From Prorocentrum cordatum (Eukaryota): a stretch of 54,795 bases of DNA. Each line of letters begins with the position of its first letter. Positions within the stretch are counted from its first letter, which is position 1. The notes under the pieces were generated by a model. That model saw nothing but the letters and a program-made list of their open reading frames with translations. It did not search any database and had not been told where the DNA came from. The stretch spans positions 62,001-116,795 of the forward strand of contig CAUYUJ010000209.1 of NCBI GenBank assembly GCA_963575745.1. Direction: 5' to 3'. Below are positions 18,868 through 47,925 of this stretch, piece by piece. The position numbers were made by a program, and so were the translations under genes.

Positions 18868-19008
18868 AAGTAGTAGTGGTGGTAGTAGTAGTAGTAGACG
18901 TAGGAGTCGTAGTAGTAATAGTAGTAGTAGTAGTAGTAGTCGTAGTAGTAGAATTCGTAACATCATTTGTATTAGTATTAGTAGTAGTAGTAATAGTAGT
19001 AGTCATCT

Positions 19009-19042
<34 letters not shown>

Positions 19043-19043
19043 C

Positions 19044-19097
<54 letters not shown>

Positions 19098-19130
19098 ATA
19101 GTAGTAGTAGTAGTAGTGGTAGTGGTAAGT
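16300..19130. repeat. 2.8-kb degenerate (TAG)n tract with internal block duplications
   Basis: Direct reading. The landmark gtagtgaaataa recurs at about 16868, 17607 and 18286. Confidence 0.95.
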
Positions 19131-19134
19131 GGTA

Positions 19135-24726: not shown

Positions 24727-24970
24727 TCCTCCTCCTCCTCCTCCTCCTCCTCCTCCTCCTCCTCCTCCTCCTCCTCCTCCTCCTCCTAATCCTCCTCCTC
24801 CCTCCTCCTCCTCCTCCTCCTCCTCCTCCTCCTCCTCCTCCTCCTTTCCCTCGTCCTCCTCCTCCTCCTCCTCCTCCTCCTCCTCTCCTCCTCCACCTCC
24901 ACCTCCGCCTCCTCCTCTCCTCCTCCTCCACCTCCCCCTCCCCCCCTCCCCCCCCCCACCCCCTCCCCCT
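24727..24970. repeat. (CCT)n microsatellite
   Basis: Direct reading. Confidence 0.95.
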
Positions 24971-26034
24971 CCGCGAGGACGTCAGGCCCCCAGCGCCGGG
25001 CCTTCGATGCGCCCGGCGCCGACGCAGTTGCTCACCGGGTACTCGGCGCTGAGGCCCTCGGACTTGCCCCTGGCGCGCCAAGCGCGGCAGGTCTGCACCG
25101 TGCGGAGGGGGGCGGGGCTGCCCCCCTGCGGAGCGGCCAGGCAGGCCGAGGAGCGAGGATCGGGGGCCGAGGAGAAGTGGCGCACAGGGGTCGAGGAGCG
25201 CGGAGGAGGGTCGAGGGCCGAGGGACTAGGATCGAGGAACGAGCGCCGGTGAGGCAGGTCGAGGAGCGAGGACCGAGGTTCGTCGGGATGATTGGCCTCT
25301 TCTTCTGCACGAAGCATGGCGCCCACTCATCGCAAGATCAGCTAGCGCGCCAGGATGCACGACAGCGCCATGCGAGCAAGCGCCATGCAAGCATCGGGCC
25401 GCATCGGATAGTCGGAACATCGGAATCTAATCGGATCGAGCCTGCCAAACCATCAAAGCAAACCTTGAGTGCCGATAAGGCAGGTCGCGGAAGAGGATCC
25501 AGGTACGTGGATAGTTGGGGATGGCTCTTCTATGCGAAACACGACGCACAGTTCTCCACAATGAAGCACGCACTGCACTATAGACATCGAGCACTGTGAC
25601 AATATCATCTTGCGATGGGATGGATCCCCCACACGGGCAATCGGCAGGGAAAATGGGAGCGCCAATACTAAGACCGACGAACGGTTGAAGCGGTGGCGGC
25701 GCTTGAAGCACAGCGCCGTGCCAGAGGCGTCGCGCGGACAGTGCCAGTCTGCCAAATATGAAGCGGGAGGAGCAGGCCACAGGAAAGAGGATGTCTCTTT
25801 CCCTGATGGTGGGGCCTCTGGAAGCCTCCAGGACCTCTCGACCTCTTCCCCCACGGCCGGCCTCTCCTCCCGAGCCGATGCTTGACGGCCCCGGTGGCCG
25901 AAACCGACCCGCTCAGGCCACGGATGGCGACAGGCTGGCCGCCTCGATTGTCGAGGCGCTGGATGCCTGGGGCCCTTCTCCTCGCCTCCTCTCGGCGGCG
26001 GGCCCTGCGGGGGCGGGTCTTCTCGGAAGGCTCA

Positions 26035-26125
26035 GGAGACCTCCCGCCTTCTGAGAAGCCTTCTCCGCCGCCTTCTGAGAAGGCCTGCCCCTTCTCTCCC
26101 ACTTCCACTCTCGGCGCGCCGCCGA
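26035..26125. mobile_element. Partial copy of the 38260-38463 MITE family
   Basis: ccgccgccttctgagaaggcct...cgccgccga resembles 38408-38463. The other end was not found. Confidence 0.55.
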
Positions 26126-28669: not shown

Positions 28670-29790
28670 TGTCACGGCCTGCGAATGCCCGTCGCAACCT
28701 GGCGCGGCCTCCCTGGAGCGGCAGACGGCATTGTTGGGGACTGGTGCAAAGGGATCGGCACGATCCCTGACAAATAGCAAGGCTTGCGAATGCCTGCGGC
28801 AGTCTGGCGCCGCCTCCCTGCTGGGTGCAGCGGGCATTGGTAGGACTGGTGGAGCGGGTGCGGCACGAGCCCTGACGAATGCCGTGGTTTGCGAATGCCT
28901 GCCGCGGTCACCCTCGAGGGGCAGACGGCACCGCTGGGATGGGTGGAGCGGGAGAGGGGCGCTCCTCACAGGTACCACGCTCGGATCCCTGCCGCGGTTT
29001 GGCGCGGCCGCCCTGGATAGGGAAGGCGGCACTGGCGGGACTCACGGCGTGGGAAAAGCACGAACTCTAACGAATGATCGGACCTGCGTGTGGCATGCCG
29101 GACGCAGTCTGGCACGGCCTGCCTGAAGGAGCAGACGGCACTGCTGACAGTGGACAGGTGGAGTGCGAAGGGCACCTTCCCCCCACAGACATCACGGCTT
29201 GCGAAGGCCTACCGCGGTCTGGCGCAGCCTCCCTGTTGGGGCAGGCGGCAGTGTCAGAGCTGGTGGAGTGGAAGCGGCACGTTCCTGGACAAATGGCATG
29301 GTTTGAGAATGCCTGTCGCAGTCTGGCGCAACCCCTCGAGAGGCAGACGGCACTGTTTGGACTGGTGGGGTGGGAACGACACGTTCCCTCACAATGCGAA
29401 CTGTTGGGACTGGTGGGAACGGCACTGTTGGGACTGGTGGGGTGGGAACGGCCTGCGAATGCCTGCGGCGGTCTGGCGCGGCATTCCTGGAGGGGCAGAC
29501 GGCACTTTGGGGACTGGCGCAAGGGGATCGGCACGATCCCTGACAAAGAGCCCGGTCTTGCAAATGCCTGACGTGGACAGGCGTGCCCCCCCCCGGAAGA
29601 GCAGACGGCACCGGCGGGACTGGTGGAGCACGAAGGGCCCGGTGCCTGCAAGAATGGAAGAGTTTATGAAGTCCTGCCAGGGTCTGGCGTGGCCTCCCAG
29701 GAGGAGCAGACGGCACCGGTGGGAGTCCTGGAGTAGGGAGGGGGCAATCACTGAGAAAGGGCACGGCTCCCGAATGCCATGCCTGCCGCC
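28670..29790. repeat. Tandem repeat of about 105 bp, about 10 units
   Basis: gcgaatgcctg..gtctggcgcggcctccc..gcagacggcactgttgggactggtgg recurs at about 105-bp spacing. Confidence 0.9.
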
Positions 29791-29889
29791 GTCCCGCGGC
29801 CCAGGGCAAGCCGCGCTGGAGCTTGAAACGGGGTGGAGAGGGGCAAGACCCCTGATGAGTAAAACAGTGTTCAAATGGTCCGATCCCTG

Positions 29890-30285
29890 CGCTCCAAGTC
29901 GGCCCAAGAGGCCCCCAAGATCGCCCCAAGTCGGCCCAAGAGGCCCCCAGTAGCCCCCCCAGACGGCCCAAGAAAGCCCCAAGACGGCCCAATACGGCCC
30001 AAGAGGACTCCGAGACGGCCCAAAATAGCCCCAAGGGGGCCCCAAGCGGGGCCGTCTAGGTGCGATTTCGGGAGCCTCTTGGGCTGTCTTGAACCCTGTG
30101 AACAAGCTGATATGCTAAAAATACTGGTCTCCCCAAAAAGAATTTGACGATCTTAGCATCTGTGGGGTCCTCTTGGGGGCCTCTTGGGGCCCTCTTGGAA
30201 CGTCTTGGAGCCATCTTAACGTGTCCTGGGGGCCTCGTGGACCGTCTTGGGGCCAATTTAGGCTGTCTTGGGGCGCTCTCGGGCA
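29890..30285. repeat. Inverted arrays of 10-11-bp ggcccaag/cttgggcc units (dispersed MITE-like family)
   Basis: cccaag units at 29890-30050 face cttggg units at 30160-30280. The same units occur at 9640-9930 and 26370-26750. Confidence 0.7.
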
Positions 30286-30689
30286 CGGGGACGGAACGCG
30301 CAACTTATAGTAGGGCCGGACAACAAGAAACCGGAACGTCACATGGGAAAATGATCGGAACCCAAAAAAAACAGGGCACCCTGGAGGCAAGCATGGTGTT
30401 TCTTGGCATGGGTCTCCACTGTACTTTGTGATGGCGCGAACTCGCCAGCTTGTCCGTTCTTCCTCCTCCTACGTCATATGTTGCCATCGCCCTTGTCGCA
30501 TCCTGTGGGGGATCCTGGGGCACTCTTGGGCCGTCTTGAGAGACTCTCGGAATGGATTCGGGCCCTCTTGAGCCGTCTTGAGACCCTTCAAGCGGGATCC
30601 CAAGACGATGTTAGAAACATCAGTTTGAACATGGTATGCTAGAGATCGGTCATATATGTAAGGATGTCCACGGTGCTATCGGTTGAACC

Positions 30690-31320
30690 CGACTGGCCGC
30701 GCTGACCCGCCTGGCATGTTCGACCCGCCTGGGCGTTTGAAACCGCCTAGCCGTTTCGACCAGAATGTCAGCTTCGAATGTCAGCTTCAAACCACGTGGT
30801 AATTACGACCGCGCGACTGGTTTCATCGGCATGTCCTTTTAAACCCGCCTGGCCGCGCTGGCATCCTTGGAAGCTTGAACCATCCTGGTCGTTTTCACTC
30901 GCCTCGCTGGTTTACAAACCTGGCCGTTTTAACCCGGGTGGCCGTTTCAACCCGCATGGCAATATTAAATCGCTTGGCCTCTTTTACTCCCCCAGCCGTT
31001 TTAACTGGCCATTTGCACCCGCCTGGGCGTTTTAACCCGCGTGGCCGTTTTAACCCGCATGGCCGTATTATCTGGCCTGGCAGTTCTTATCCGCGTGGCA
31101 GATTTAACTCACGTGGCAGTTCTAACCCGCGTGGCCGCATGAACCCGCCTGGCCATTTTAACCCGCCTGGCCGTTTTCACCAGCCTGGCCGTTGGAACTG
31201 GCCTGGCCGTTTTAACCCTCCTCGCAGTTTTAACCCGCCTGGTCGTTTTAATCCGCATCCGCCTGGCCGTTACAACACGCCTGGTCACCGCCTTGCCCTG
31301 TTAACCCGCCTGGCCAGCCG
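30690..31320. repeat. 18-bp minisatellite cgttttaacccgcctggc
   Basis: Direct reading. It produces the PPGRFN repeat ORF. Confidence 0.9.
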
Positions 31321-31923
31321 CGTGGGTCATCTTGGAGCGACACCAAGACGACGCGGACAACATCTCATGCTTGGGAGGATGTCCCTCGCAAAATCGCTAT
31401 GTTGGGCAAGGGCGGTACCAGGACGATGTCGGCAACATCTCCTTCTGAGGACGTCCCCAGTGAAATCAGCTAATCGCCATGTTGGGGAAGACCAAGACCA
31501 AAAGGTCGTCGACAACATCTCATTTTTGTGAAGACGTCCCTAGCGAAATCTCCATTGTGGGCAAGAGCGATGTCGACGATTTCCCATTTGTGTAAGGATG
31601 CCCCTGCCAAATTACAATCTGGAGAGCGGAAGAAGGGCGTCTTAGAGCCATATTGTTGGGCTATGCTGGGCCGTCTTGAGGCCTTCCGAGAGCGATCTGG
31701 TCAGCGGGGTACATAGTTGCAACTCCAGCTGCTGGCGCTGCCGCTTTTGCCCGTGCCCCTCCTCCAATTTGCCCCGCTCACAGGCACCCATGAAACGTCA
31801 TGTCAACATGCCGCCCGAGATGGTCCCCAAGATGGCCTCCAAGATGGCCCAAGGCGGTTCGCAGCAGGCGTCTTCGACCCGCCGCCCCGTTCTCCTCCTC
31901 CTCCCACGCAGCTTCCCCCTGCT

Positions 31924-32145
31924 TGAGGTGGAGCGTGGGGGGGGGAGGAACCGCCTCAGGGGGGAAAACATCGCCCCAGGATCGGCGATCCATCGCCGAT
32001 AGAGATCGACGATAGACCCCCGGGTAGCGAAGACGCACGTTCCTGGGCTGCGCGGCCTGTCGGGCTCCTGTCGGCGAGGGGCGATGAGGGGTCGCTGCCT
32101 CCCCCCCTGAGCCGATCCCCCCCCCACACACACGTCCTCCGCCGG
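31924..32145. mobile_element. Sibling of the intron-1 element
   Basis: Its start tgaggtggagcgtgg..ggaaccgcctcagggggg resembles 40902 onward, and its end gagccgatccc..cctccgccgg resembles 41252-41287. Flanks are ctgct/ccgct. Confidence 0.6.
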
Positions 32146-32829
32146 CCGCTCGGGACGAGCCGGGCGCCCCGGGAGCGCTCTCGGCGAAAGGCGCAGCTGC
32201 TGGAAAAAGCACCCCGCGGCGGAGAAAAAACCCGCGGAGAAAACCGACGGAGCGTCCGAAAGCCTCGAGCCTCGAACCCGAAACTTCCACCCTTTCTGAT
32301 GCCCATGACTGCTGCTGCACTCACGCTGGCGGACCGCCGTCGCGTACCACTGGCGCTCGCAGGCGCCCCAACCGCGGAGGCGGTCGAGGCATGGCACCCT
32401 CCGACCACCCCATCCTCCACCTCCTCCTCCACCTCCTCCTCCACCTCCTCCTCCTCCTCCTCCTCCTCCTCCTCCTGGCACTGGCACTGACGACACGTGG
32501 CTCCTCAAGGCTTTCTTGACGATGGCGGTCTCGTCCTCCTTCTTGCTGCTTCTGATCTCCTGCTTGTGGCCCTTGGAAGCTCCTGGGCGAATGGGGGACG
32601 GCCCGCACGGGTCCCGCGAGCGCGCTGGCGCGCAGAGCGGCCAGCTGCAACCCGCCTCGAACGCATCCAGATCCGTACGATTCACAAGCACAAGGCGATG
32701 TGCAGCATCGATCTCCGAAAGAAGAGCACGCTGTCCCTGTGTGAGGCGATCCCCCCGCGAGGGCCTCGTCACTGCGCACGCTATCCCAAGGCCAGGGCTT
32801 TCTCGGTGCGCACCGTCCACAATGATTTT

Positions 32830-32931
32830 TGTCATTATTACTATGATTAGTAGTATTCGTACTAGTTGTGTCATTATTGTTATTAGTATTAATATCATTA
32901 TTGTTATTATTATTATTATTAGTAGTAGTAT

Positions 32932-32975
<44 letters not shown>

Positions 32976-33080
32976 AGTTATTTTTATTATTAATAATAAT
33001 AATATTAGTATTATTATTATTAGTTGTAGTAGTAGTAGTATTAGTAGTAGTAGTATGCTTGTTATTATGATCATTATTCT
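32830..33080. repeat. (TAT)n/(TAG)n microsatellite
   Basis: Direct reading. Confidence 0.9.
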
Positions 33081-33089
33081 TATAGATTG

Positions 33090-33542
33090 TTCCCTACCTA
33101 GGCTCTGCCTAGAGGGTTCTTACTCTCTTAGCTTAAAGGGACCGGACAGTGCAAAGCGCCCCGGGCGGTTCCCCCAGTCCCCTGGGAGCGGTTCCCCCAG
33201 TCCCCTGGGAGCTTTAGCTTTAGCTTTACCTTTAGCTTTAGCTTTAGCTTATCTTCAGCTTAACTTTAACTTAGCTTTAGCTTAGCTTTAGCTTTAGCTT
33301 TAGCTGTAGCTCAGCTTTAGCTCAGCTTTAGCTCAGCTTTAGCTTAGCTTTAGGTTTGATTTAGCTTAGTTTTAGTAGCTTAGCTTTAGCTTAGCTTAGG
33401 CTTAGCTTTAGCTTAGCTTTAGCTTAGTTTTAGCTTAGCTTTAGCTTAGCTTTAGCTTAGCTTTAGCTTAGCTTTACTGTTACTATTAATGCTGCTTTCC
33501 TAGGGGCTCCAACTCCTAGGCAGGGTCGCGCTGGGATAATTT
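33090..33542 (+). mobile_element. Non-autonomous element with internal (TTAGCT/TTAGC)n satellite, copy 1
   Basis: Inverted repeats ccctacctagg...cctaggcaggg, satellite at 33211-33476. The whole unit is repeated in inverted orientation at 34078-34678. Confidence 0.8.
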
Positions 33543-34032
33543 GTTTTTATCTCTCTCTATATATATAGTGTTTGTGCACACCGTCCCCGGTGTGGGGGGT
33601 CGCGTGTGATAAGCGGCTTCGGCGGCGGGCCCCGCCGGCGCCACACCGCGCGCTGCCGTTCCAGCGCCAGCCGCGGGGAGAGACATCCTCGGAGACACCG
33701 GGCGCCGAGAGGAGGCCGCGCCGAGCGCCGAGGAGAGGCGGCCGAGACGACGGCGGCCCCACCGCTGGGCCGCCCAAGCCCGTCGCAGGCCTGCCCCCGG
33801 ACCCCCCTCCCATAGGGAGCCCACAAAGGACGTACGCACCCAGCTATGTACATGAACACGGCCCCTCGATTCGCGAGACCAGCCGCGTTATACGAACATT
33901 TGTGCAATGCGTGCTCTCGAAACCGGCGTGGATTCATGACATGTGCGTCCTTCTTTCGCTCCTGATCCCAGGGGTCCATCCTGACCCGTCCGTCGAGGCG
34001 GGTCCAGGCGTGGCGGCGAGGAGCCGGCAGAG

Positions 34033-34789
34033 TTATGTCGGGCCTGTCCCCCTACAGGGGGACTTTCGACGAAAAAGAAATTATCCCAGTACGACCCTAC
34101 CTAGGAGTTGGAACCCCTAGGAAAGCAGCATTAGTAGTAACAGTAACGCTAAGCTAAAGCTAAGCTAAAGCTAAGCTAAAGGTCAGCTAAAGCTAAGCCA
34201 CTGCTGAGCTGAAGCTAAGCTAAAGCTAAGCTAAAGCTAAGATAAAGCTAAGCTAAAGCTAAGCTAAAGGTCAGCTAAAGCTAAGCTAAAGCTGAGCAAC
34301 AGCTAAGCTAAAGCTAAGCTACAGCTAAGCTAAAGATAAGCTAAAGCTAAGCTAAAGCTAAGCTGAAGCTAAGCTGAATCTAAGCTAAAGCTAAGCTACA
34401 GCTAAGCTAAAGGTCAGCTAAAGCTAAGCTAAAGCTAAGCTAAAGCTAAGCTAAAGCTAAGCTAAACGATAAGCGAAAAGCTGAGCAAAACGCTAAGCTA
34501 AAGCTAAGCTACAGCTAAGCTAAAGCTAAAGCTAAAGCTAAAGCTAAAGCTAAAGCTCCCAGGGGACTGGGGGGAACCGCGGGGCGGGGACTGGGGGAAC
34601 CGCCCGGGGCGCTTTCCACTGCCCGGCCCCTTTAAGCTAGAGAGTAAGAACCCTTCTAGGCAGAGCCTAGGTAGGGAAAAATACACCAAAAATACCCCAA
34701 GAGAGTCAACAAATACGCAAAACATAGTCCCCCGACATCTTTTATCGTTCGTCGAAAATCCCCCTGTAGGGGGGACAGGCCCGACTTAA
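34033..34789. mobile_element. Second copy (opposite orientation) of the 24051 TIR family, with a nested TTAGCT element
   Basis: Same TIRs. Interior 34679-34746 is the reverse-complement homologue of about 24090-24170. A third left TIR starts at 34869. Confidence 0.82.
34078..34678 (-). mobile_element. Element with internal (TTAGCT)n satellite, copy 2, inverted and nested
   Basis: Reverse complement of 33090-33542 with a longer satellite (34148-34557), inserted in an A-run. Confidence 0.8.
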
Positions 34790-34951
34790 CCCTAGACCCC
34801 CTCCCAGGGGTCCCTCCTGACGCGTCCGTCGAGGCGGGTCCAGACGTGGCGGCGAGGAGCCAACAGAGTTATGTCGGGCCTGTCCCCCTACAAGGGGGAG
34901 CTTCGACGATAAATAAAAAAATACCCCAAAAAGACCCTACAAAGGTAAAAA

Positions 34952-35168
34952 TATGGGTTCCTAACGCCCCAGGGCGGGACACAGGTGAAAACACATGGTT
35001 CCTAACGCCCCAGGGCGGAGCAAGCGCGAAAACATATGGGCTCCTAACGCCCCAGGGCGGGAGAAGCGTGAAAACACATGGGTTCCTAACGCCCCAGGGC
35101 GGAGCAAGCGCGAAAACACATGGGTTCCTAACGCCCCAGGGCGGGGTAAGCCTGAAAACACATGGTCC
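34952..35168. repeat. Tandem repeat of about 42 bp, 5 copies (atgggttcctaacgccccagggcgg..gaaaacac)
   Basis: Direct reading. Confidence 0.92.
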
Positions 35169-35441
35169 TCTGTCACGTCCTGTGGCACGTCCATTGGCAC
35201 GTTCCGTAGCGCGTCCCCTTGGCACGTCCCGCGGTGCGTCCCCAAGATCGGTACATTCAGCATTACATTTGCCCGTCGCCCAATCAGGTGTCTTTGAAGC
35301 GTTGCCATGCCTTACATTTCTACATTCCCTTCCGGGTTCGTGGGTCGATTATGTTTCATAGTATTGGGATTGTCGTCTCCCCCCCCACTTCCCACATTTC
35401 CCCGTGGTTTCTGGGGGATCGACGACTCATCGTGTCTATGT

Positions 35442-35654
35442 TTTGGACGCCCGAAATGGGCACGGAAAGAATGGGTACAATGCCCAACAACAAATGTTGT
35501 CCCAAACCAGCAGCGGCTGCTGTTGGGCAGGCGGCCTTCTGTCTCGAATGGACGCAGGCCGCGGCGGCGTGGACAGCGAGTCCTGTTCAAAATGAACAGG
35601 AACTGCTGTTGGGCATTGTACCCGTTCTTTCCGTACCCATTTCGGGCGTCCAGA
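35442..35654. mobile_element. MITE with about 48-bp TIRs and 5-bp TSD
   Basis: TIR tggacgcccgaaatgggcacggaaagaatgggtacaatgcccaaca and its near-perfect reverse complement ending ccaga. TSD tatgt at 35437-35441 and 35655-35659. Confidence 0.88.
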
Positions 35655-36580
35655 TATGTTTCCCCTTCTGACACACAATGCGACCCTGCCAGCGCCTGCA
35701 GAGGCAGCCTCCCCGAGCGGCCGGCCGGCCGGCCAGGCGACGGGCCCGGCGGAGAGGCCGGGGAGAGGCGCAGGCCCCGCGCGGGCACGCGCTCGCGACG
35801 TCGGCGCCGCTCGCGGGGGCGGAGCCGGGCAGCACGAAGGATTTTTTGGACTTGCAGAGTCGCCACTCGCAAATGGCCTGGATCTGCCGCGGGGAAGGCA
35901 CGACAAACGGCACGAGGCAGACGCATATGGCTTCTCGGACGCTTGCGAGCAGGCACTCTGCGAGCAGAGGAGAGCGCGCTCGGCGAGCTTTGGGGCACCC
36001 CCAGGGCCAATCGGCCGAAACGGTGGCAGCTCATTCCCGGCGCCGTTCTTCGACCTCGGCCTCCGGGGCCCGTGCTCGGGCCGTCCTGGCCCCCTCGATG
36101 GCTGAAGCTGTGGGACGGGGGGGGGATGTCTTGCAGAGAGATCGGGGAGTGTCCGACTCTGCTGGGCGGTCTGCGGCGGATGCGCTCGGGGCAGCTTCCG
36201 TTATGCTGGTCCACGCACTGGACGGCCAAAGAAACAGTGACTGGGCTGCCGGAGCCCTCCCGTTAAAGACGCGCAGAGAAGATCTGACAAAACTGTTACG
36301 GGGCCATGAGAGACAGCGAGAGGGATCAGGGAGGCGCCTGTGCAAGGACACCCGCAGCCGAGTGCTTTTTTGACGTCTTGCCCGATAGAGAGCTTCAGAT
36401 CGGGCAGCGCGGTGCAGTGCGGCAATCCTACAGATGATGCCCGCCCTCTGCGAGGAACGGCGCGCATACCGCACAGGATGCCGCCATCCCTTCGACCCAT
36501 CCGGCGGCGCCCTTTCGAGGAGAGCCGCGGGGGACGCGCGCGGGCCAGCCGACCACCGCCTGGCAGGGCGGGCCCAGGCG

Positions 36581-37027
36581 TCACCTGGTGGGCGCGCGTG
36601 CCTCGCTCGACTCACGCCCTGCCCGCGGCGTCCTCGTGAGCTGGCCGTCCAGGCGAGGGATGGCGAGCCAGTCCTCGTTCTGCACGATCCTGCCCAGCGG
36701 GATCAAGTCCTCGACATCACAGCCTAGGTGAAGATGAACGGTTCTGTTCGTGGTGGAGGACGCGAGATTGAGGGAGGCCCCAAGCGACGGCATCCGCGAG
36801 GCCTTCTTCCCCGGGGCCGGCCCGGACTCATCGCTGGAAGCCTCTACGTCGTCGCAGTCGCCGCCTAAGCCCGAACCGCTGGAGCATGAGCCCTCGTCTG
36901 CGGCCTCGTCACCGACCAGGGCGTGACCAGCCTGATTGGACGGTCTGTGGGACGACTCTGCAGCTTGCGCGTCCATGGCGGCCTCCGTGATCACGCGGCT
37001 GGCGTAGTTCCGGCGCCTGACCAGGAC
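36581..37027 (-). CDS. Anoctamin exon 6 (C-terminal tail)
   Basis: Acceptor gcccAG|G in phase 0. Reads VLVRRRNYASRVITEA... to TGA at 36581, in the frame of ORF 36581..37219. Confidence 0.65.
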   Translation of the reverse strand, partial: VLVRRRNYASRVITEAAMDAQAAESSHRPSNQAGHALVGDEAADEGSCSSGSGLGGDCDDVEASSDESGPAPGKKASRMPSLGASLNLASSTTNRTVHLHLGCDVEDLIPLGRIVQNEDWLAIPRLDGQLTRTPRAGRESSEARAPTR

Positions 37028-40000
37028 CTGGGCACAGGCTCGAGGCGCCCGAGTCTGGTTACGCAGGGGCTCGCTTCGCCACGTCGGGCGGGCGGGGCCC
37101 CAGCGGGTGGGCCTGGCTGGCCGCCACCCCAACAAGTTGGGCCGGCGGGCCAGGAAGGCGGGCGGGCGGGCGGGCTTTCCAGCATGCGAGCGAGCTGGCT
37201 TCAACGGGTGGAGCCTCACGAGCAGCGGGTGAAACAGAAGAGGTGGGCGGCGAAGCGTCCCGGGCGGGACGATCTGGGCGAAGGGAGCTGGGCGAAGCGA
37301 GGCCCGATCGAAGCGAGCCAGGCGAAACGAGCCATGCGAAGCGAGCCTGGCAGAGCGAGCCCAGGCGAAGCGTCCCCGAGAAGCGAGCCTCGGGCAAAGC
37401 GAGCTGGGCGAAGCAAGCAGGGCGAAGCGATACCCAGGCGAAGCGCGTCTACCCGTCTATTCCCCTATGGCCTTCGCGTGTGGGGACGTTGGCGGCACGA
37501 CGATGTCCACCAGCGCCCATATGCCCGATATCAGCATGAACCACATAACGAGCCCACTAATCTTCGCGAGCAGAAGGGCGCCGTGGAAGAAACGCCCCCA
37601 CAGCACGACGAGCACCCCGGAAAAGAAAATGCCAAAGTTCATCAGCACGGTCATCACGCCCGACCTGGAGAGACCATGAAGGTACCGATCCCGCTGCTCC
37701 CCGGACCTCTCCTGGGGTGCGCTCTGACCAGGAGGCGAATCCAGCGGTGGCGACGAGGGCCTCCCAGGAGGAGGAGGAGGAGGAGGAGGAGGAGGAGGAG
37801 GAGGAGAGAAGGAGGAGGAGGAGGAGGAGGAGAGGAGGAGGGGAGAGGAGAGGAGAAGAGGGGAAGAGGAGGAGGAGGACGAGGAAGAGGAGGGGGGAGG
37901 AGAGGAGGAGGGGGAGGAGGAGGAGGAGGAGGAGGAGGAGGAGGAGGAGGAGGAGGAGAGGGAGGAGGAGTAGGCGGAGGAGGAGTAGGCGGAGGAGGAG
38001 GGGGAGAACGAGGGAGGGGTAGCGGTGGGGGCACCTTTCCCTCCGCCTGACGACCAGGCCCCCACGCCTCCGAGCTTGTGGGGGAGCGGGCGCCGCGTAA
38101 ACTTCCACGTGAGGAGCAGGGCCCGGAAGCGCAGCGCGCAGGCGAAGTGCACGAGGCACAGGGGCACCACCATGGGCTGCAGCGTCCCGAAGAGCATCAC
38201 GAAGCCCAGGCCGATGACGAGCTGGAGCATGTTCTCGATCTGCGCCCGCATGTTGAGGGCCGGCGGCGAGCGAGGGGGGGGGGAGGCGAGGAGGAGGAGG
38301 CCCTCTCGGAGGGCTCGCGCAAGTCCCCCGGCCTTCGGGGAGGTTTGCTGAGCCCTCCCCGAAGACACGGGCAGCTTCTCAGGAGGCGCGAGGGCTTCTG
38401 AAGAGTCCCGCCGCCTTCTGAGAAGGCCTTCTCCTTCTCGCTTCCCCCCTCGCTCGCCGCCGAGAAGGGCGTGTACTTCGACTGCTCCTCCAAGAATGAT
38501 CGGTGCTTCACGCTGCCGTCCTCGCTCGTGCTTTTCTGAAGCTTGTAGTCCTCCCACCGCAGCACGAGCCACACTTGCACCGCCTCGAGCACGCTGAGGC
38601 CGATGCTGCAGGCCAGAAGGATACCCACCAGCATGCTCACCTGCCTCTGCAGGGCCAGGAAGCAACCAGCCTCAGGGCAATGCCCAGACACCAGCTGGCT
38701 GAAAGCCACGGATACGCAGGGCCAATAATTGTTCACGGCCTGGAACAGAAACTGACCCCACACCCAGCTGTCATGGTAATCCTGGTCATACTTGTGATTC
38801 TCCATCTCGACGAGCCTGGCAGAAAGCGCATTGTACAGCAGCTCGGAAATCTTCACGATGATACTGAGCCACAGAGACGCAACCAGATCGAGGTCTCCCC
38901 GATGGATGTGGACCCAGGTCCCTGATATTAGCATCACCGCGGCACAGCAGACGAGAGTGATGCAGACTGACAAGACTCGCAGGCCGACTGCCGTTTTAAA
39001 AGGCGCATTCTCTTCCATAAGGTTCCCGTCGACATCCGACTTCATGAAAACGCCCTTGAAGCTCGGGCGAATGATTTGGTCGATGGCATCTTGCTCGTTC
39101 CACAGCGTCTTGAAATACTCTTCGTCTCGCCTCCACAGGTTCGCCATGACCCTCGCCCAGGCAAGTATGAGGATGGAGAACGGCATGAGCTGCCTCTCTG
39201 GGACGACCGTGCGATCCCCAAGCCGTACACCGACGTCGACCCCGAGCAGTTGCACGGCGAGGCGGACCGGAACGAACTTCAAGACGGTGATCAGGATCGC
39301 TGCCACGCTGAGGCATACCAGGCCCTTGGACCAGGGCTGAACCTAAACGGTTTTTTTGTTTTCGTTTTGTTGTCGTTTTCCCTCGCACTTGTCTCGAATC
39401 CACCTCCACCGCAAAACGAAATCAAAACGAAAACGGCCCACGAAATCGCCAAAACACCGTTTAGGTCCAGCCCTGCCTTGGACCACACGCCCTGCCACAC
39501 GAAGCCGAACGCCAGCTGCGAGCCGTAGTACTCCCCCACGAGCGGAATGGGCTGCACAAAGCTCAGGTCCGTCACCACCTCCAGCGGCGCCCAGGTGTCC
39601 CGCAGCCTGTTCAGCCACAGCTCGCTGTGGCACGGGTACCAATCTGTGACGATGCCGACGTCCTTGACAGCTTCGAGGTTGAGGAATCGTGTGAGTTCGA
39701 GCTGGATAACACGGATGCGCGCCGAGCCGCTCATGACCGAGCCTTCGACGCCACTGTCGCGGTATAGCCGGTACAGTGCCCGCTCATCAGGCTCGTCGAT
39801 TGCGTTGGCCTTGAACAGCGACTTGACGAGCCTTTGATCGTAGCGCAAGAACGGAGGCGACGATTGTGGATCCCGTGGGTCCTGAAGGATCTTAAGTCGT
39901 TCTACCACCGCGTGCGTCGTCTGGAGCTCAACGTTCCCCCGCTGGAGGTAATGTGAGACGACCTCCGGCCGGTTGAGGCTGATGCAAAGAAACAACTCGT

Positions 40001-41448
40001 CGCCATCGATAGAACTGAACAGGTTCACGGAGAAACCAAGGAGCGGCAATGACCTACACATGTCCTTCAGGACAAGGATCCTCAGCTCCCCCATAGTTAT
40101 GTCCAAGGCCTCGCCGACCGTGCTCCTGATGCGACGCAGGGCCTTCTCCGCGGCCGTGGCGCGCGACACCTTGAGATCGTGGTCTCTGATGACGGTCTCG
40201 ATCCCTTGGAAGAAGCCCTGGTCCGGCCGGTGAGCCAAGGCACCCTGCAGCATTTCGCGCGTGACGAGCTTGTCCCTGTCGTGCTGCAGCTCGTAGCTCG
40301 GATGGGGAAACACGAAAACGACGTCGGCATGCATATGGAACTTGTTTGTCGACTCCTGACTGGCATCTAGCTTCTGCGCATGGGCCGCGTCTTCCCATGT
40401 GACGCTCGACGTGGACGTGGTGGTGGCCTCGATTTGCCGCCGCCAAGCTCGAGGGGTGAGGATCTGCGCCACCGTCGCCGTCTCCGTCTTCGGCCGCGAG
40501 TGGTCGTCCCCAAAGTGATGATGCTCCTCGTGGTCGTGCGTATAGAAGAACATGAAGTATACAGTACCCCACAAGATGCCACTGACCACAATGACGGGCA
40601 GGGTCAACGTGCTGCTCGTTCGCGCCTCCATCCCTGGCATCAGCCGCTCGATAAGGTGCAGGTTTGAGATGAACATGTGCCTCATGCCAGATGGGAGCCT
40701 GCGGAAGTCGTCGATGCACTCCCTGAACCTCTGCTTCACGCCATCCACGATCGAGGCGTCGCCCTCCAAGATCGCCTTCTTCACGTCGTCGGGATCGAGA
40801 TCATGCTCATCGGGAATGTCCACGTCAACGTGGCCGGGAAGATCCGGCAGCGGAGGCTCAGTCGTGCCGGCAAGGGGAGCGCCCGCGTGCAGTCGTAGAC
40901 CTGAGGAAGAGCCGCGGGCGGGGGGGGGAACCAGCTCAGTGGGGGGGAATCAGCGATACACGTCGTTCATTTCTGATCGTGCTCATTTCTGATCGTGCTC
41001 GTCTCTAACGGTTCCTGGCCCCCCAGTGGCCAGGAAGAGGCCCAGGACAGAACCGTCAGAAATGGAAGGATCTCGACCCCCCAAAAAATTGGAGGAACTT
41101 TCGAAAAATCAGAGAGGAACAACGTGCACGTCGCCAAAACCTCGGCGATATACACCCCCGACGGAAAATCCGCACCCTCCCGGGCTTGGTAGGCTGTCGG
41201 GGCCCCGGCGGCGGAGAAAGTGGGGCCGTCGGGGGACGGGGCGCCCCCGCGGAGCCGATCTCTCCCCCCCGAGCGCGCTCCCCCCGAAGACCGCGGCGGC
41301 CCAGGAGAGCGGCCACCGCCCCGGCGGGGGGTAGCGACCCGGGCGCGGCGTGCGGCTCGGAGGCGTGCCCCGGGCCCCGGGGCTCCCCGAACGGGGCCGC
41401 CGTGCGGGCGAGGAGGCACAGCGCCAGGCACCGGAGGGAGTGCTCCAT
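36581..41448 (-). CDS. Anoctamin/TMEM16-family membrane protein, 6-exon model, about 1090 aa
   Basis: Anoctamin motifs occur in order: QPIPLVGEYYGSQLAFGFVWQG, LWRRDEEYFKTLW, IRPSFKG, ENHKYDQDYHDSWVWGQFLFQAVNNY, C..GCFLALQRQV, ENMLQLVIGLGFVMLF, RRPLPHKLGGVGAW. Exons 41448-41292, 40900-39477, 39324-38458, 38239-38055, 37664-37472 and 37027-36581 are phase-consistent and sum to 3273 nt. The exon 3/4 junction is uncertain. Confidence 0.88.
37472..37664 (-). CDS. Anoctamin exon 5 (TM9-TM10)
   Basis: Acceptor ctccAG|G, two hydrophobic segments (SGVMTVLMNFGIFFSGVLVVLWG and ISGLVMWFMLISGIWALVDIVVP), donor AAG|GC. Confidence 0.8.
37666..38050. mobile_element. TG...GA element with 5-bp TSD forming intron 4 (37665-38054, GT-AG), carrying a (GGA)n tract
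   Basis: TSD cgacc at 37661-37665 and 38051-38055. Both ends are homologous to the copy at 6433-6575. Confidence 0.85.
38055..38239 (-). CDS. Anoctamin exon 4 (TM7-TM8)
   Basis: IENMLQLVIGLGFVMLF...RRPLPHKLGGVGAW. The 5' boundary is uncertain (38239-38259). Donor TG|GT. Confidence 0.82.
38260..38463. mobile_element. 204-bp MITE interrupting anoctamin between TM6 and TM7
   Basis: Perfect 19-bp TIRs cggcggcgagcgagggggg (38261-38279 / 38444-38462). Near-TSD gaggg/gaagg. Removing 209 nt restores the frame. Confidence 0.85.
38458..39324 (-). CDS. Anoctamin exon 3 (TM1-TM6)
   Basis: Lies in the frame of ORF 38197..39306 and contains ENHK...FLFQAVNNY. The 3' boundary is uncertain (38458-38468). 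Confidence 0.85.
39332..39475. mobile_element. 144-bp hAT-like MITE forming intron 2 (39325-39476, GC-AG)
   Basis: 19-bp TIRs cagggctgaacctaaacgg / ccgtttaggtccagccctg (1 mismatch). Perfect 8-bp TSD ccttggac at 39324-39331 and 39476-39483. Confidence 0.93.
39477..40900 (-). CDS. Anoctamin exon 2 (extra TM, cytosolic N-domain, start of TM1)
   Basis: Lies in the frame of ORF 39291..40823. Acceptor tcttcctcAG|G, donor AAG|GC, contains the QPIPLVGEYYG motif. Confidence 0.88.
40902..41287. mobile_element. TG...GA element with 5-bp TSD forming intron 1 (40901-41291, GT-AG)
   Basis: TSD agacc at 40897-40901 and 41288-41292, degenerate terminal inverted repeats, sibling copy at 31924-32145. Confidence 0.8.
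41292..41448 (-). CDS. Anoctamin exon 1 (signal-peptide-like N-terminus)
   Basis: Starts ATG with MEHSLRCLALCLLARTAAPFG. The G|GT donor at 41291 is phase 1 and matches the acceptor at 40901. Confidence 0.65.
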
Positions 41449-41560
41449 GGTCGGCCGGGAGGCGCAGGGAGCTGCACGGGCGGGCTCGTGGCGTGTCCGT
41501 CGGGGTCGTTAGGTATCATGTCCTCTTCATTGCGTGGTAGAACTGCGGCATCGAGACGCG

Positions 41561-41588
41561 CTCGAGCCGACTTGAGATAAAATAACGG
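41561..41588 (-). other. Relic dinoflagellate spliced-leader sequence(s) upstream of the anoctamin ATG
   Basis: Minus strand reads ccgttattttatctcaag-tcggctcgag versus DinoSL CCGTAGCCATTTTGGCTCAAG (11/15 at the 3' end plus a partial second copy), about 115-140 nt before the ATG. Confidence 0.55.
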
Positions 41589-42047
41589 ACGCACACACAC
41601 ACACTGACAGACAGACAGACGGACGTGCGCGCAGACGCACACACGCAGACAACCACGCAGACAACCACGCACACACACACACACGAACACCCGCACACAA
41701 GCACAGACACACACGCACACAAACAAACAAACAAACAAACAAACAAACAAACAAACAAACATCATGAACCAGCGAGCAGGGGGACGCCGTCCGGCCGGGG
41801 ATCAATGTTGGCACATGCGGTGTGCTATGTTGCGGCCACGTGTATACAATAGCTGCAATACCGCACACACACACACGCACATTATCCTCCTGCGCAGCGT
41901 TGTCGTAACGATTGGTCGCAGACTGAAGGGACACATCAGCATAAATTGCAATCGCACGCGTGACGCTCGTGCTGAAGACAAGGAACGTTCTCGCCTGGGT
42001 TACGGGCGACCCGAAACGAAATGTACAAAGCGAGAAACAGAAAAATA

Positions 42048-42282
42048 GTGTTTGGGCCTGATGACCCAACTATCCCAGAGCATTTGATGCATCCTCTTCA
42101 TGATCTCCTAGCTCAATAGACCCCTTGACAACGGTCTTTGGAATGCTATGCTCCTTAACGCTGACGGACGACATGGCGGCGCGCGCGCCACTCCATTTTT
42201 CCACCTACGAAGCACCAGCTGCGTTCCGCAAAGTAACTTGAGCCAAACGCGCGCGGCGGCACCCGCATGGAGGGCAGAAGAA
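42048..42282 (-). pseudogene. Truncated 5' end of an unknown gene with SL-like motif, copy 1
   Basis: TTTGGCTCAAG at 42247-42237, GCCGCCATG at 42174, MSSVSVKEHSIPKTVVKGSIELGDHEEDA then a stop. Homologous to 47506-47735. Confidence 0.5.
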
Positions 42283-45049
42283 AGCAGCAAGGAGCAAAAG
42301 GGGTTGCCCCCCCCCCCCCCCCCCTCGCGTCGGCGACCCGGCCAGCCGCACCTCAGTATGCCGGCCTTCAACACACCGCGCCATGGAGCGCCAACCCCAA
42401 AAAGATTACACCGCGCTCACCATCCGCAAAGTCCCTAAAAATGCCGCAGCTGCAAAGGCGGTCGCTCGACGGACCCGCAGTGCGCCAGGAACGCGGGGCG
42501 CCCAGAGCTGATCGCTCATTCGACTATGTCGCCCCGCAGCTCGCGACGACCTCGATTGCCTTTTCGACCAACCGTCTTTCTTGCGCTTCCTGCCAAATTC
42601 CTTGTCGGAAGCGCGCGCCCGCGACGACTTGCCAAACCCACCTTCCATTTACTGTCGCGCCATCCGCTCCCCGAGCTCTGTTCGCCACCACTGGCGCTGC
42701 TCGCTTTATGGCACCTGCCCCTGCCGCGAGCTCCAGTCGCCACCGCTAGCACTGCCTGCTTCGACAGCCCTGGCCCACAATCTCTCGCCCTCTTTTCCAC
42801 GGCTCTTGCTGGCATCGCTGCCCCAGCGACCGTTGTTAGACCAAGATGTATTCCAACCACCTTTGCCTCCGACCTCGTTTCCACCACGCGCCCCCCCCTC
42901 CTCGGGGCAGGCGCTTTCCACTCGCCGCGCCCGCGGCCCCCTTGTCCCCCCCCCCCCACCCGCCCTCAATCACGCCCGGAATCCGGGTCTGGGCCGGGGC
43001 CAACATAACCACCTATGCCCGACCCCCGCGGTGGCGGAGGGGGGCAACGCAAACCTGCCAGCCGCCGACGCGGCGGCAGAGTGCAAGTGCGGATTGACTC
43101 CCCAATTCATGTAGCTAATTCTCATCCAGATAGCATTCGTGGTCAACCACATCCGGCGCTCCTCGATCGCTCGACCCATTCATTCTCATCTCGAGAACCT
43201 GCGGATCGATCAGCGTCGCCAACATCCCATTCCCCTCCGAGGATGCCTGATTCTTCTCTCGCAGCAAAACCAGCGGGCAGGACCGCGCCACCCTTCAATC
43301 CCTCTCGCGGGGAGAGGCAAATCGACCCATTCATGACGCCGCCTCCACAACGCATGCGCCTGTCAACATCTCCCCGTGATACTTCTGCATGCCACGCACA
43401 ACGGCGTCGCGGAACGCGCGGTCCATCTTGCCGTCGTCCTGCACGGTCGCAGGGTCAGCACACGAATGGGACGCATCCATCACAACGCGAAATATCTCTC
43501 GCGCAAACAATCCTTATCGCCAAGATGCCACGGCGCACGCTCTTCTTCACCCGTCAGGTCCCAGTCGGGTTCATCTTGCGCCGCAGTCGCGGTCAGGTTC
43601 GTCGATTAATTAGGCCGCGGCCACCTCGCCCGAAACGCACTTCATCGGAATGGGAAACTCCCTCGCCCCCTCCGGCCCAGACAGGCGACTGGCCAGTTGC
43701 CGGGAGCGTCACAGTCTCGCAATCGGCACTGTGCACCCCCATTGCGAGTCGCAGCCTGGTTGGGCACGGTATCTTCCAGCGCCCGTTCAAGCCCGTGATG
43801 GTCAGCGCGTGCTTCATTGAACTCGGGCGCAACGTCTCGCCTCGTGGCGGGGAGCGTTAAGTACCCGCTTTTTTCGCGGCATTTTCCCAACTGCGAGCCA
43901 AATCTACGATTGTACCTCAATTCGAATCGACTCCTTTCTGGGAGACCCACACTGCCCGGCCATCACTTACAAGGCGAAATTCCCCTGCCCCCCAGGGTCG
44001 GCAAAGTCCCAGTCGAACACGCCCAGGGAGCCGGAATCTAGGGCATTGGGACTCGCGTCGATTAGGGAACAACGTTCTGGACGCTGACTCGATTTCAAGA
44101 AGGGCAGCCTTCGCGCGCAATTGAACCCCCTGGACAGCTTGCCGAACTTCCTCCAACAGGGCAGAGAACAAGCCACTGGCATGCGCTGCTGAAGCCCCGG
44201 GGCCCACGCGAAATACGCGGCGGCGGCGTCTCTCTTTCACGCTCGTCTCAAGAATCGCGAGCGCCGCGACCCGCGCGCGGCAGACGACAGCGCCCAATGG
44301 TCTTTCATCTGCTTGTCTAGACTGTTCGCTCTGGGGGACAACTGCATGTACAAGTTTGTATCGTCGGGGCGGGGCCCCCGGGTTGGTCGCGGCAACCGAC
44401 GTCGAGCCCGGCCCCGCACCCGCCGGGATGGGCGCCGCCACCAGCGGTTTGACCCCATCGGGCGCACTGCAAAATCTGGCGAACTTACGTCTGGAACCGC
44501 CGGTTGTTCGCGACGCGCGCGCGGCGAGAGCCCCAGGTACCAGCTGCCCCAACCCCAAAAGGCCCCCCATTTCTAAGGACTCCACCCAGAAGCGCTCAGG
44601 CGCGCTCACCCATGAAATTGTTGCACCTGTTCAGTTTCATGTCATGAGCCGCAGACACCTCGCTGAAGAGCGGGCTCAAATTTAGGGGCGCACCACCCAA
44701 CCCCACTTAGATGGGCGGCGGCACTGCGAGATGATCTTAGATGATAGCGAAAAAGGGGTCATAGTTCTAACTCCCTCGCATCATCTCGCATCATCCTCGC
44801 ATCATCTCGCGTCACCTTACACCATGGATCATCATAGATCATCTGCGCCGGTCATACTCAGAAGATGGCGAGCCTGGCATACATATTATCTCTTTGGGAC
44901 ATCATCCGGCAAAGTTGCGGCGCTTGGGCCCGCTAGTTATCATCTATGTGGCGTAGTTATGCAAAGTTATCATCCCCGCTATACAGGGGTTATAACTTGT
45001 TGTGATCTTGCACGATCTTACCTCGCATCTTCTGCTATCTTGCCCCGTT

Positions 45050-45790
45050 GGGGGTCGGCCACCCGCTGACGCGCCATCGTCCCCGCTGGGGGTCGGCGAC
45101 CCGCTGACACGCCAGTGGCCCCAACGGGGTCGCCGATCCGCCCACGCGCCATCGGCCCCGAGAAGCCCGTGCCCCAGTGGGGGCCCGCTCACAAGCCAGC
45201 GGCCCTGCGGCCCCAATTTGGGTCGGCGGCCCGCTCACACGCCAGCGGCCTTAAGATGCCCGTGGCCCCGACGGGGTCGGCGGCCGGTTCACGCGCCATT
45301 AGATGCCCGTTCGCTGGTTGGTTGGTCGCTAGGTTGGCTGGTTGGTTGTGTCCCCATTGCCCTCCGAGCCTCCAAGGACCCCCCCAAGACGTCAAAATGG
45401 TTCCAAAATTCTTGACGTTTCGCGCGGCACCAGCCCATCCAGCAACAATGCCAAGGAGAGCTGACGGGGGAAGGGAGGTCGGCGCCGAGGGCGGTCGGCG
45501 GCCCGCGCACACGCCGTCGGCCCAGAAAGGCCCGTGGCCCCATTGGGGGTCGGCGGCCCGCTCACACGCCCGTGGCCCGGATGCAGGCGGGTCGGCGACC
45601 CCTTCACACGCCCGTGGCTCCGACGGGGTTGGCGACCTGCTCACACGCCCGGGGTCGGCGACCCGCGCACGCGCCAGGAGAAGCACGTGACCCCGCTAGG
45701 GGTCGGTGGCCCGCTCGCACGCCAGCGGCCCGAAGAGGCCCGTGGCCCCGACGGGGTTGGCGGCCCCCTCGCGCGCCAGCGGCAAGAAGG
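45050..45790. repeat. Minisatellite of about 36 bp (ggggtcggcgRcccgctcacacgccagtggcccc) in two blocks
   Basis: Direct reading. Confidence 0.85.
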
Positions 45791-47505
45791 CAGATCTGGG
45801 CGCAGGTGGTTTGAGGAGTGGTTTGAGGAGTTTCCTAACCCCCTTTTTCCCCTTGGGGGTGCTGCTGTTGGTGCTGTTGCTGGTGCTGGCACTGCTGGTG
45901 GTGCAGCATGGCGATGCTGCTGCTGCTGCTGCTGCTGGTGCTGCGGTGGCGTTGTTGGTTCTCGCGCTGACGGCGCTGATGCTGGCGGTGCTGCTGGCAC
46001 TGAGAAGGCGGAAAGGGGTATAGGTGAAAAAGGAGGAGGGGGAGGTGGAGGACGAGGATAGGGCGGGGGAGGCGGAGGAGAGAGAAGGGAAGAGTACGAG
46101 GATGTTGACAGGAGGAGAAGGCGGTTGAGAAGGATGATGCTGATCTGATGATGGTGATGATGGTGAGGAGGATTGTTCACGCCGCCTCGCCTTGCACCAT
46201 CAATCACGGACCTTCGAGGAGCGGGGTTCGGATGGATTCCTTGGTCTGCGCCTTTTTCTCTGCGATTATCGAAGCTTGCTCGCCCCCTCTTTTCCCGCCA
46301 CGACTTGCCCCACGCTCTGCAACGTTGCCCCCTGTAGATTCTCGGCGCCCAGCCTCGCGTCGCGCTGCCCGGGCCTCGCGCGTCTCAACCATAGTGGCGC
46401 CCTTGGCCCCAGCTTCAGACATCTCGACGAGTCGGGCAACCCGTTGAGCCTCAGGTTCGCCAGAGGCAGAGGCATCGCGCCCAAGCAGAAGCAAGCGCTG
46501 ATCCATTATTCGTCGAGCCTCAATCTCCCTTGCGAATTCAGCCCGGGCCTTTTCGGCCTCTGCGCGGGCCTGGCTCGCGGCAATCTCGATGCCGACTCTC
46601 GCCCGGGTCTTTTCCGCTGCCTCAGCCTGAGTATTTCTAGTTGCCGAATCTGGAGCTCCTGTCCTTTAAAAAAAAACTTCAATAGTGCGACCGAGGCCTT
46701 TGTTTTTCGAAGCTGCCTACCAGTCTGCGTTCCGCTATGCAATGGTGGCGTGGCTGGGTGGTGCAAGTCGCCCATCACATAGGAAGTTCACGCTGCAATC
46801 CTTGCCCTCGTAGGAGCCACCCAGCAGGCGGGCCGAGCACAATTCCCTGACTGCCGTGGGCATCGATATCCCGCCGTGCGACCACGCCACACCGTATATC
46901 GCTCGACGGTCCGAGATTTCCGCGTCGAGGCCAAGAGGCTGCTGGTCTATTTCCGCGTCGTCCTCTTCTCCTGTGTCGGGCAAGTGCTCGTGCTGATCGC
47001 CAAAATTGTTTTTCGCGATCCCCTTCTCCCACGCCGTCTTGAATCTCTTCCGTGGCAAATTAACGTTGTCAATCCCAGCCTGCACTTCCAATGGGAAGTC
47101 CGTCCCATACGCCGCACCGTACGCTCCTGGCACCTTCAAATAATTTTCGGCGGCGCTAACGCGAAATCGGTTTCCTGCTCGTGAGGCGGTTAGCCCCAGC
47201 CCGATTGTTACTCGGCACGCCTGGTACTGATCGTGAAATACACAAATCCCGCCACATCTGGCAGTGAGATCGCGAGGACCCTCGCTCACCGTCAGAATCT
47301 TTTTCAAAATCATGATTTGTCGCTCCAGAAATAAAAATATGATGATGCACGCCATACCTCGTTTCCCAGAGCAACGAACTCGCGAGATCGGTCAGGTTTG
47401 TCACCTGGCATCACGCCAGCACTGTCAGCTGCCTTGCGGCTGCGATGAAAGCGATCATCTGGGCCAACGCAAGGGACAACACCCTGCTCTCCTTCGGCTG
47501 GTAGA

Positions 47506-47735
47506 CTGTTTGATCAGATGGTCAAGATGGACTGACCAATATGGAGTATCATCTTCATCTTCTCCTATCCCAGTAGACCCCTTTCACAACATTTTGTTGG
47601 ATACGATGGCATCTTAATGTGACGGACGACATGGCGGCGCGCGCCGCTCGTTTTACCACCTACGCAGAGCCAGCGGCACTCCGCAAAATAATTTGAATCG
47701 AACGCGCGTGGCGGCACGCGCAGGGAGGGCAAAAG
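47506..47735 (-). pseudogene. Diverged copy 2 of the same 5' end
   Basis: GCCGCCATGTCGTCCGTC at 47632 and a shared aaggggtcta..taggaga..atgaaga segment. Frameshifted. Confidence 0.5.
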
Positions 47736-47769
47736 TGGGCAGGAGTGAGCGTAAGGAATCGACTGAAAG

Positions 47770-47823
47770 AAAGAGAGAGAGAGAGGGAGAGAGAGAGAGA
47801 GAAACGCACACACACACACACAG

Positions 47824-47903
<80 letters not shown>

Positions 47904-47925
47904 ACACACACACACACACACACAC
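47770..47925. repeat. (GA)n(CA)n(CACG)n compound microsatellite
   Basis: Direct reading. Confidence 0.95.

Follow-up and report, generated by a model that had tools for sequence, protein, structure and literature searches.

The anoctamin locus and its insertion

The stretch analysed here, hereafter the window, comprises 54,795 nucleotides (nt) of contig CAUYUJ010000209.1 from the dinoflagellate Prorocentrum cordatum. It carries on its minus strand a transcribed gene of the anoctamin/TMEM16 family, with a coding sequence (CDS) for 1093 amino acids (aa) between about 41448 and 36584. A 204-nt MITE (miniature inverted-repeat transposable element) lies within this gene, between its third and fourth exons, and in assembled RNA from four studies the element and one copy of its target-site duplication (TSD) are absent as a 209-nt intron without canonical ends. 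The positions of these and other features are collected in Table 1. Pfam family PF04547 matches the gene both upstream of the element (E 1.2e-26, profile positions 25-311) and downstream of it (E 6.4e-08, profile positions 327-386), the match thus resuming across the insertion site from profile position 311 to 327.

The element has the features of a MITE, namely terminal inverted repeats (TIRs), small size and no open reading frame (ORF). In an inverted-repeat scan its two arms were complementary at 19 of 19 positions, and the pairing stretched imperfectly to 45 nt at 82%. With up to three mismatches allowed, the arm sequence occurs at only these two places in the whole window, while two or more matches were obtained in none of 100 shuffles. 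Perfect inverted pairs of 19-mers with a loop of at least 50 nt and a span of at most 400 nt number 192 in the window. All but one (191) are period-3 GGA/TCC simple repeats; the single non-simple pair is formed by the TIRs of the element, and none of 100 dinucleotide shuffles contained any. The short direct repeats on either side, gaggg and gaagg on the plus strand, agree at four of five positions, and the repeat shared exactly at the junction is 2 nt long (TC). Both the perfect 19-bp TIRs and this TSD had been proposed from the letters of the sequence, and both are upheld, the 5-bp length of the TSD being backed by a second copy of the element with identical flanks (5/5), described below. A TSD of 5 bp does not by itself assign the element to a superfamily.

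The element belongs to a family, with the termini T/C-CGGCGGCG...CGCCGCCG-A. Two full-length copies, L069 (positions 321-525) and L082, come from one metagenome and share about 80% identity each with the window copy across some 187 nt, and a third, shortened copy lies in the window itself. Similarity between the copies begins and ends exactly at 38260 and 38463, and the flanking sequences of L069, L082 and the shortened copy are unrelated. The 5 nt on either side are identical in L069 (GACCT/GACCT), match at four positions in the window element and at two of the five in L082. No TSD was evident around the shortened copy, and neither an interpretable ORF nor a TSD was found in the flanks of L082. 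The scan of the metagenome with the 19-nt TIR returned 93 loci, of which 91 were unrelated contigs sharing the 19-mer or slightly more; the element itself was present only in L069 and L082. The existence of four copies with common ends, two in the window and two metagenomic, indicates a genuine mobile element, as opposed to an artefact of assembly. In three of the RNA runs introduced below (X1, X10 and X16) certain contigs overlap the element in its right half; they carry an extra C of the type seen in L069 and L082 or diverge at 38463, the position at which two X16 contigs part exactly from the window, and we read these contigs as other, expressed copies of the family.

Relative to a plausible ORF the L069 copy is oriented like the window element, and its duplication of AGGTC would offer AG|GT...AG|GT, from which a canonical GT..AG intron would be formed. 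No transcript for this copy emerged when longer proteins were searched by word index. Of three matches from an exhaustive protein search, P0027 (81 aa) alone is close, and it represents the ORF of the L069 contig itself, which runs into the element. Since no transcript was found, we infer the GT-AG reading of L069 from its sequence. Taken together with the window copy, it hints that one family may be able to make introns of either kind, depending on where it lands.

Table 1. Positions of the insertion, its host gene and related features in the window
Feature	Position	Strand	Details
Anoctamin/TMEM16 gene, transcribed	36372-41556	minus	six exons: 41556-41292, 40900-39477, 39324-38464, 38254-38055, 37664-37472, 37027-36372
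MITE	38260-38463	minus	204 nt, without coding capacity; ends set by similarity to L069, L082 and window 25992-26125
5' TIR arm, sense strand	38444-38462	minus	CGGCGGCGAGCGAGGGGGG
3' TIR arm, sense strand	38261-38279	minus	within a C/T-rich tract ending 4-6 nt before the 3' cut
5' TSD copy	38464-38468	minus	sense CCTTC; kept in the mRNA, provides a conserved Phe codon
3' TSD copy	38255-38259	minus	sense CCCTC, one mismatch; leaves with the element
Non-canonical intron	38255-38463	minus	209 nt, element and one TSD copy; cut shiftable by up to 2 nt (38256-38464 or 38257-38465)
Shortened family copy	25992-26125	plus	134 nt, internally deleted, same termini TCGGCGGCGGGCCC...CGCGCCGCCGA
Intron i1		minus	391 nt, GT..AG
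Intron i2	39325-39476	minus	152 nt, GC..AG; contigs skip 152 nt (both=10) in 4/4 runs
Intron i4	37665-38054	minus	390 nt, GT..AG
Intron i5		minus	444 nt, GC..AG

RNA joints, the encoded protein and neighbouring introns

RNA contigs from four runs belonging to four studies (X1, X6, X10 and X16, the last on record as polyA RNA-Seq) were aligned to positions 29000-48999; the small-share runs X19-X24, and those stretches of this region without RNA cover, were excluded as evidence. In every run one contig lies on the anoctamin exons, 3582-3599 nt long in X1, X6 and X10 and 3094 nt long in X16. These contigs show no mismatch to the exons in X1, X6 and X16 and a single one in X10, and all 3599 positions of the X1 contig, over exons and untranslated regions (UTRs), agree with the window. 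All four contigs carry the joint 38254->38464, which skips 209 nt with 2 nt of freedom (both=2), as computed from the protein. These contigs skip 444, 390 and 152 nt in all four runs; in X1, X6 and X10 they skip the 391-nt intron too, and in X16 that joint lies on a small contig of its own (depth 3.4). Since the contigs joined across the 209 nt also lack other introns, they represent mature RNA. The exon part of the bin 38338-39004 suffices to explain that bin's whole depth of 49.9 in X6 (541 nt x 61.5 / 667 = 49.9), and therefore no X6 contig covers the element. Among the contigs listed for the four runs we found no joint of 218 or 221 nt, no retained form and no contig bridging exon and element.

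Exactly three cuts restore the reading KYTPF|NMRAQ (38465-38257, 38464-38256 and 38463-38255), all with the loss of 209 nt. In that order the cuts leave intron ends of TC..CC, CT..CT and TC..TC, so none has a GT/GC/GA-AG pair. The combination of G(T/C/A)..AG with a G after the 3' cut is absent from this intron and present in the gene's remaining four. Introns of the U12 type have AT-AC or GT-AG ends and a conserved extended 5' splice-site motif; the 209-nt intron starts with TCGGCG, CTCGGC or TCTCGG, depending on the cut, and is not of this type. An intron on the antisense strand was considered and rejected, its plus-strand ends being GA..GA, AG..AG or GG..GA and thus also non-canonical.

The protein sequences agree with this joint. 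The upstream exon, used as a query, retrieved P0001 (1093 aa), which reads EEQSKYTPFNMRAQIENML; its source contigs are at most 3614 nt long, so that its CDS must be uninterrupted there. The cluster at 90% identity to which P0001 belongs also holds P0012, from MMETSP/JGI transcripts, and P0013, a partial NCBI model of 822 aa annotated as Prorocentrum cordatum, which is the only genome-derived member. The translation of the window with the 209 nt taken out is identical to P0012 at 1093 of 1093 residues. It differs from P0001 at two of 1093 residues, with the same junction, which means that a second genotype shares this junction. Both proteins read KYTPFNMRAQ across the site, and relatives at 52-78% identity follow the pattern K-Y-x-x-(F/Y)-(D/G)-M-R-(A/E)-Q without a gap. 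With the element retained, the gene would yield a protein of 902 aa with a junk tail. The copy of the gene in the window is functional at the level of RNA, and its product is the full 1093-aa anoctamin.

These results decide between the outcomes that the original prediction had offered for an in-exon MITE without canonical splice sites, namely a non-canonical intron, cryptic splicing or a gene-killing insertion, precise removal of 209 nt being expected to give KYTP(F/L)NMRAQ. The three cuts compatible with the protein, none of them GT/GC/GA-AG, bear out the lack of canonical ends and the restored reading; as to the junction residue, the mismatch in the TSD fixes it as F, and the alternative L falls. 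Complementary DNA across 38200-38500 had been named as the evidence on which the functionality of this gene copy would turn. The RNA contigs show the 209-nt gap that was to signify non-canonical splicing in all four runs, and with the full-length product this makes the copy functional at the RNA level. The pseudogene outcome, in which no gap would appear, was seen in none of the contigs listed.

The other introns of the gene (i1, i2, i4 and i5) each have a boundary repeat containing (A)GG. Intron i2, too, is formed by a MITE, 144 nt long and from a different family, with the TIR CAGGGCTGGACCTAAACGG and the 8-bp TSD GTCCAAGG, and its GC and AG sites are assembled from TSD and TIR. Its 8-bp TSD and CAGGG start are features that we take to resemble those of hAT elements. 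The anoctamin gene therefore contains one MITE intron with canonical sites and one without, and both leave as the element together with one TSD copy. A long and imperfect (GGA)n/(TCC)n microsatellite makes up most of intron i4, and like tracts are common across the window, for example at 24442-24885.

Elsewhere, the window has a G+C content of about 0.6 in most 2-kb bins, in line with the 59.7% given for the P. cordatum genome, and is rich in GGA/TCC simple repeats. A 4-kb block at 16001-20000 is unlike the rest, with a G+C content of 0.40-0.41, a GC skew of +0.44 to +0.58 and ORFs of extremely low complexity. Pfam found no family in 43 other long ORFs of the window, and Rfam none in the window. 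No further credible RNA joints were seen in 29000-48999 among those listed; skips of 4787 and 4660 nt, each with 20 nt on one side and in one run, were treated as repeat artefacts. A large inverted repeat (33376-33548 and 34072-34244) has 173-nt arms that are 90% complementary and 523 nt apart, and falls in an RNA-covered stretch (bin 33669-34335, with X1 depth reaching 223). Perfect 17-nt inverted pairs spanning 97-209 nt occur at 35444-35652, 35473-35623, 21237-21372 and 1982-2078, and may mark further MITEs; those at 35.4-35.6 kb also lie in an RNA-covered stretch.

Explanations for the 209-nt gap

We consider it likely, with a probability of roughly 0.78, that the gap reflects the genuine removal of a non-canonical intron at the RNA level, guided by hairpin structure. 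In the proposed course of events, a non-autonomous TIR transposon of 204 nt, with a TSD of 5 bp, would have entered the coding exon of the anoctamin gene at CCTTC (sense), a target devoid of an AG|G(T/C/A) motif. Processing of the pre-mRNA would then remove the element and one TSD copy exactly and restore the frame that existed before the insertion. The sense RNA of the element is predicted to fold into a near-continuous hairpin (minimum free energy -149.9 kcal/mol, z -6.85), and none of 200 shuffles was as stable. Its predicted 19-bp stem pairs 38462 with 38261, placing the base at distances of 1-3 nt (5' cut) and 4-6 nt (3' cut). Such a GC-rich hairpin may bring the two TSD copies side by side and mark the segment for removal, and the C/T tract of the 3' arm (sense) may act as a pyrimidine tract. 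The cutting would fall either to a spliceosome that recognises intron ends less strictly or to a separate activity.

Several points weigh against this interpretation. The RNA evidence consists of assembled contigs and not raw reads; it establishes that the joined form exists and dominates, while the absence of a retained form is not demonstrated by it, and since contigs can hide rare forms, minor isoforms may exist. A gene copy or strain free of the insertion may also exist. A hairpin beside a short direct repeat is the classic setting for template switching by reverse transcriptase. Intron i2, a MITE with canonical sites, is predicted to fold just as well (-83.6 kcal/mol, z -7.19), so that a special pathway does not follow from a hairpin by itself. 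Finally, the 209-nt intron is the only one of its type examined, the other four anoctamin introns having GT-AG or GC-AG options.

The rival that survives best, although we regard it as improbable, is that the transcripts come from another gene copy or from strains that the element never hit, the window copy being silent or a dying pseudogene. An uninterrupted original would read exactly like the observed junction, and P0001 attests at least one other genotype. The perfect agreement of the X1 contig with the exons and UTRs of the window speaks against such a source. The 90%-identity cluster contains no intact genomic copy, its only genome-derived member being the truncated P0013, and the next relatives are at most 78% identical. 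Furthermore, the exons downstream of the element are still intact and in frame, and the four runs list no contig that bridges exon and element.

It is clearly less probable still that the gap arose in the test tube, with the mRNA keeping the element and reverse transcriptase jumping across the base of the hairpin by way of the direct repeat, so that a false intron appears in the cDNA. The hallmarks of such artefacts, namely ends that are non-canonical, a junctional direct repeat and a stable hairpin, are all found here, the repeat being 2 nt when exact and 4/5 overall and the hairpin reaching -150 kcal/mol. Against this, the 209-nt junction is the only assembled form in four of four runs from four studies, at full mRNA depth, and the contig is as unbroken there as at the four other introns. 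Fragmented, random-primed libraries should also give reads that join exon and element, yet X6 has no cover of the element. Retention would, in addition, cut a conserved channel to 902 aa.

Two further explanations we hold to be very improbable. Cryptic canonical splicing as the main outcome, through the 218-nt GC..AG route or a similar one, would give KYTPFSAIENML in a product of 1090 aa. The sites of this route, put forward in the original prediction, do exist (donor at 38457, acceptor after 38240), and P0013 ends exactly at ...KYTPFSA, which indicates that the annotation pipeline chose that donor. The listed contigs do not use them: joints of 218 or 221 nt appear in no run and the 209-nt joint in all four, and the route would lose the conserved MRAQ motif that P0012 and P0001 retain in KYTPFNMRAQ. 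Somatic excision of the transposon from the DNA before transcription, which the intact TIRs would in principle permit a transposase to perform, has as little to recommend it, since the element is present in the assembly, its loss would be needed in nearly all transcribing nuclei of four studies, and the original sequence is restored exactly, whereas cut-and-paste excision normally leaves a TSD footprint.

Relation to known introns and to gene annotation

The closest parallel to the proposed hairpin-guided removal at the anoctamin locus is offered by the introner elements of Amoebophrya A25 and A120. In the part of that study considered here, these elements are described as having hairpins, ends that are non-canonical and validated by RNA, and repeats both inverted (8-20 nt) and direct (3-5 nt, over the boundaries) (Farhat et al. 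2021, PMC7789003). The 209-nt intron shares with them, as there described, an RNA-validated non-GT-AG status, an inverted repeat of 19 nt that falls within their range, a predicted hairpin and membership of a repeated family; it likewise contains no transposase, and its length is near the 240-nt mean of A120 (PMC7789003). Its short direct repeat of 5 nt over the boundaries corresponds to theirs imperfectly (4/5, 2 nt exact). It departs from them in its host, which is a free-living core dinoflagellate and not a parasite, and in the share of non-canonical introns, one of five in this gene against more than 60% there by the same account (PMC7789003). The likeness suspected in the original prediction thus fits feature by feature, with an imperfect direct repeat and a different host. 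The element is of the same kind as the Amoebophrya introners but in another host, and is not one of the described families.

Canonical dinoflagellate introners provide a second comparison. According to the portions of the reports used here, a TIR element is removed as a unit with its TSD, leaving the repeat once in the mRNA (Roy et al., preprint 10.1101/2020.10.14.339549), and the repeat in dinoflagellate 'identically repeated intron boundaries' 'always' holds GG/AGG (Mendez et al. 2015, PMC5032977). Intron i2 is a textbook example by the mechanism outlined in the former (10.1101/2020.10.14.339549). The 209-nt intron resembles this class in that element and TSD leave together, TSDs of 4, 5 and 8 nt being among those described (10.1101/2020.10.14.339549; PMC5032977). 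It is unlike them in its ends: as far as those descriptions go, canonical introners use a 5' G(T/C/A) and a 3' AG drawn from an AGG-type target, whereas here the target is CCTTC and such ends are absent. In the literature on core dinoflagellates as covered here, which takes in passages of the P. cordatum genome paper, only G(T/C/A)-AG introns and introners are described, and searches for non-canonical introns of this type in the group returned only the Amoebophrya study and work on canonical introners.

More distant systems work in a similar way. The nonconventional introns of euglenids have, in the sections of the reports drawn on, variable borders, RNA pairing that joins the ends, repeats that blur the junction and a suspected MITE origin (PMC3935182, PMC12501133). 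The lineage is unrelated, and the comparison, made by description and not by sequence signatures, supports a likeness in working and not membership. In the tunicate Fritillaria, non-canonical introns have a MITE origin. Such non-GT/AG introns are removed efficiently, as is the 209-nt intron, and the portion of the report considered attributes this to altered U1/U2AF/U6 of the major spliceosome (PMC13326754).

The finding bears directly on gene annotation. The P. cordatum genome paper, in the text covered, sought introner elements only inside introns that had been predicted with GT/GC/GA-AG sites, so introns of the 209-nt type would have been invisible to that search. The public model P0013 illustrates the same restriction. 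It ends ...KYTPFSA inside the element, and at i2 it uses an acceptor 18 nt upstream of that of the RNA contigs, which adds the six residues VQPWSK. Pipelines that allow only G(T/C/A)-AG sites, as the covered text presents them, account for both the end at KYTPFSA and the VQPWSK insertion. This model, ending at the element, is wrong.

A broader idea, which we put forward tentatively and with more doubt than conviction, is that core free-living dinoflagellates have a general pathway for the removal of hairpin-forming transposon insertions from pre-mRNA, recognising either their structure or the combination of element and duplicated target, regardless of the end dinucleotides. Such a pathway may be independent of the normal recognition of 5' and 3' splice sites. 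If it exists, these organisms would have the same capacity as Amoebophrya and, convergently, the euglenids; insertions of hairpin-forming transposons into exons would be neutral on arrival; and truncation or splitting would affect many of the gene models published for dinoflagellates, which come from pipelines that allow only GT/GC/GA-AG.

Should introns of this type prove common, non-canonical introner splicing would not be peculiar to the parasitic Amoebophrya. The authors of the Amoebophrya study, in the part considered, tie non-canonical introns to missing U1 components (PMC7789003), an explanation that would then need rethinking. P. cordatum, being culturable, axenic and provided with multi-omics data, would also be a species in which to study how a fresh transposon insertion turns into an intron. 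The anoctamin gene presents one well-supported case; it flags a systematic blind spot of annotation and makes the question of mechanism testable.

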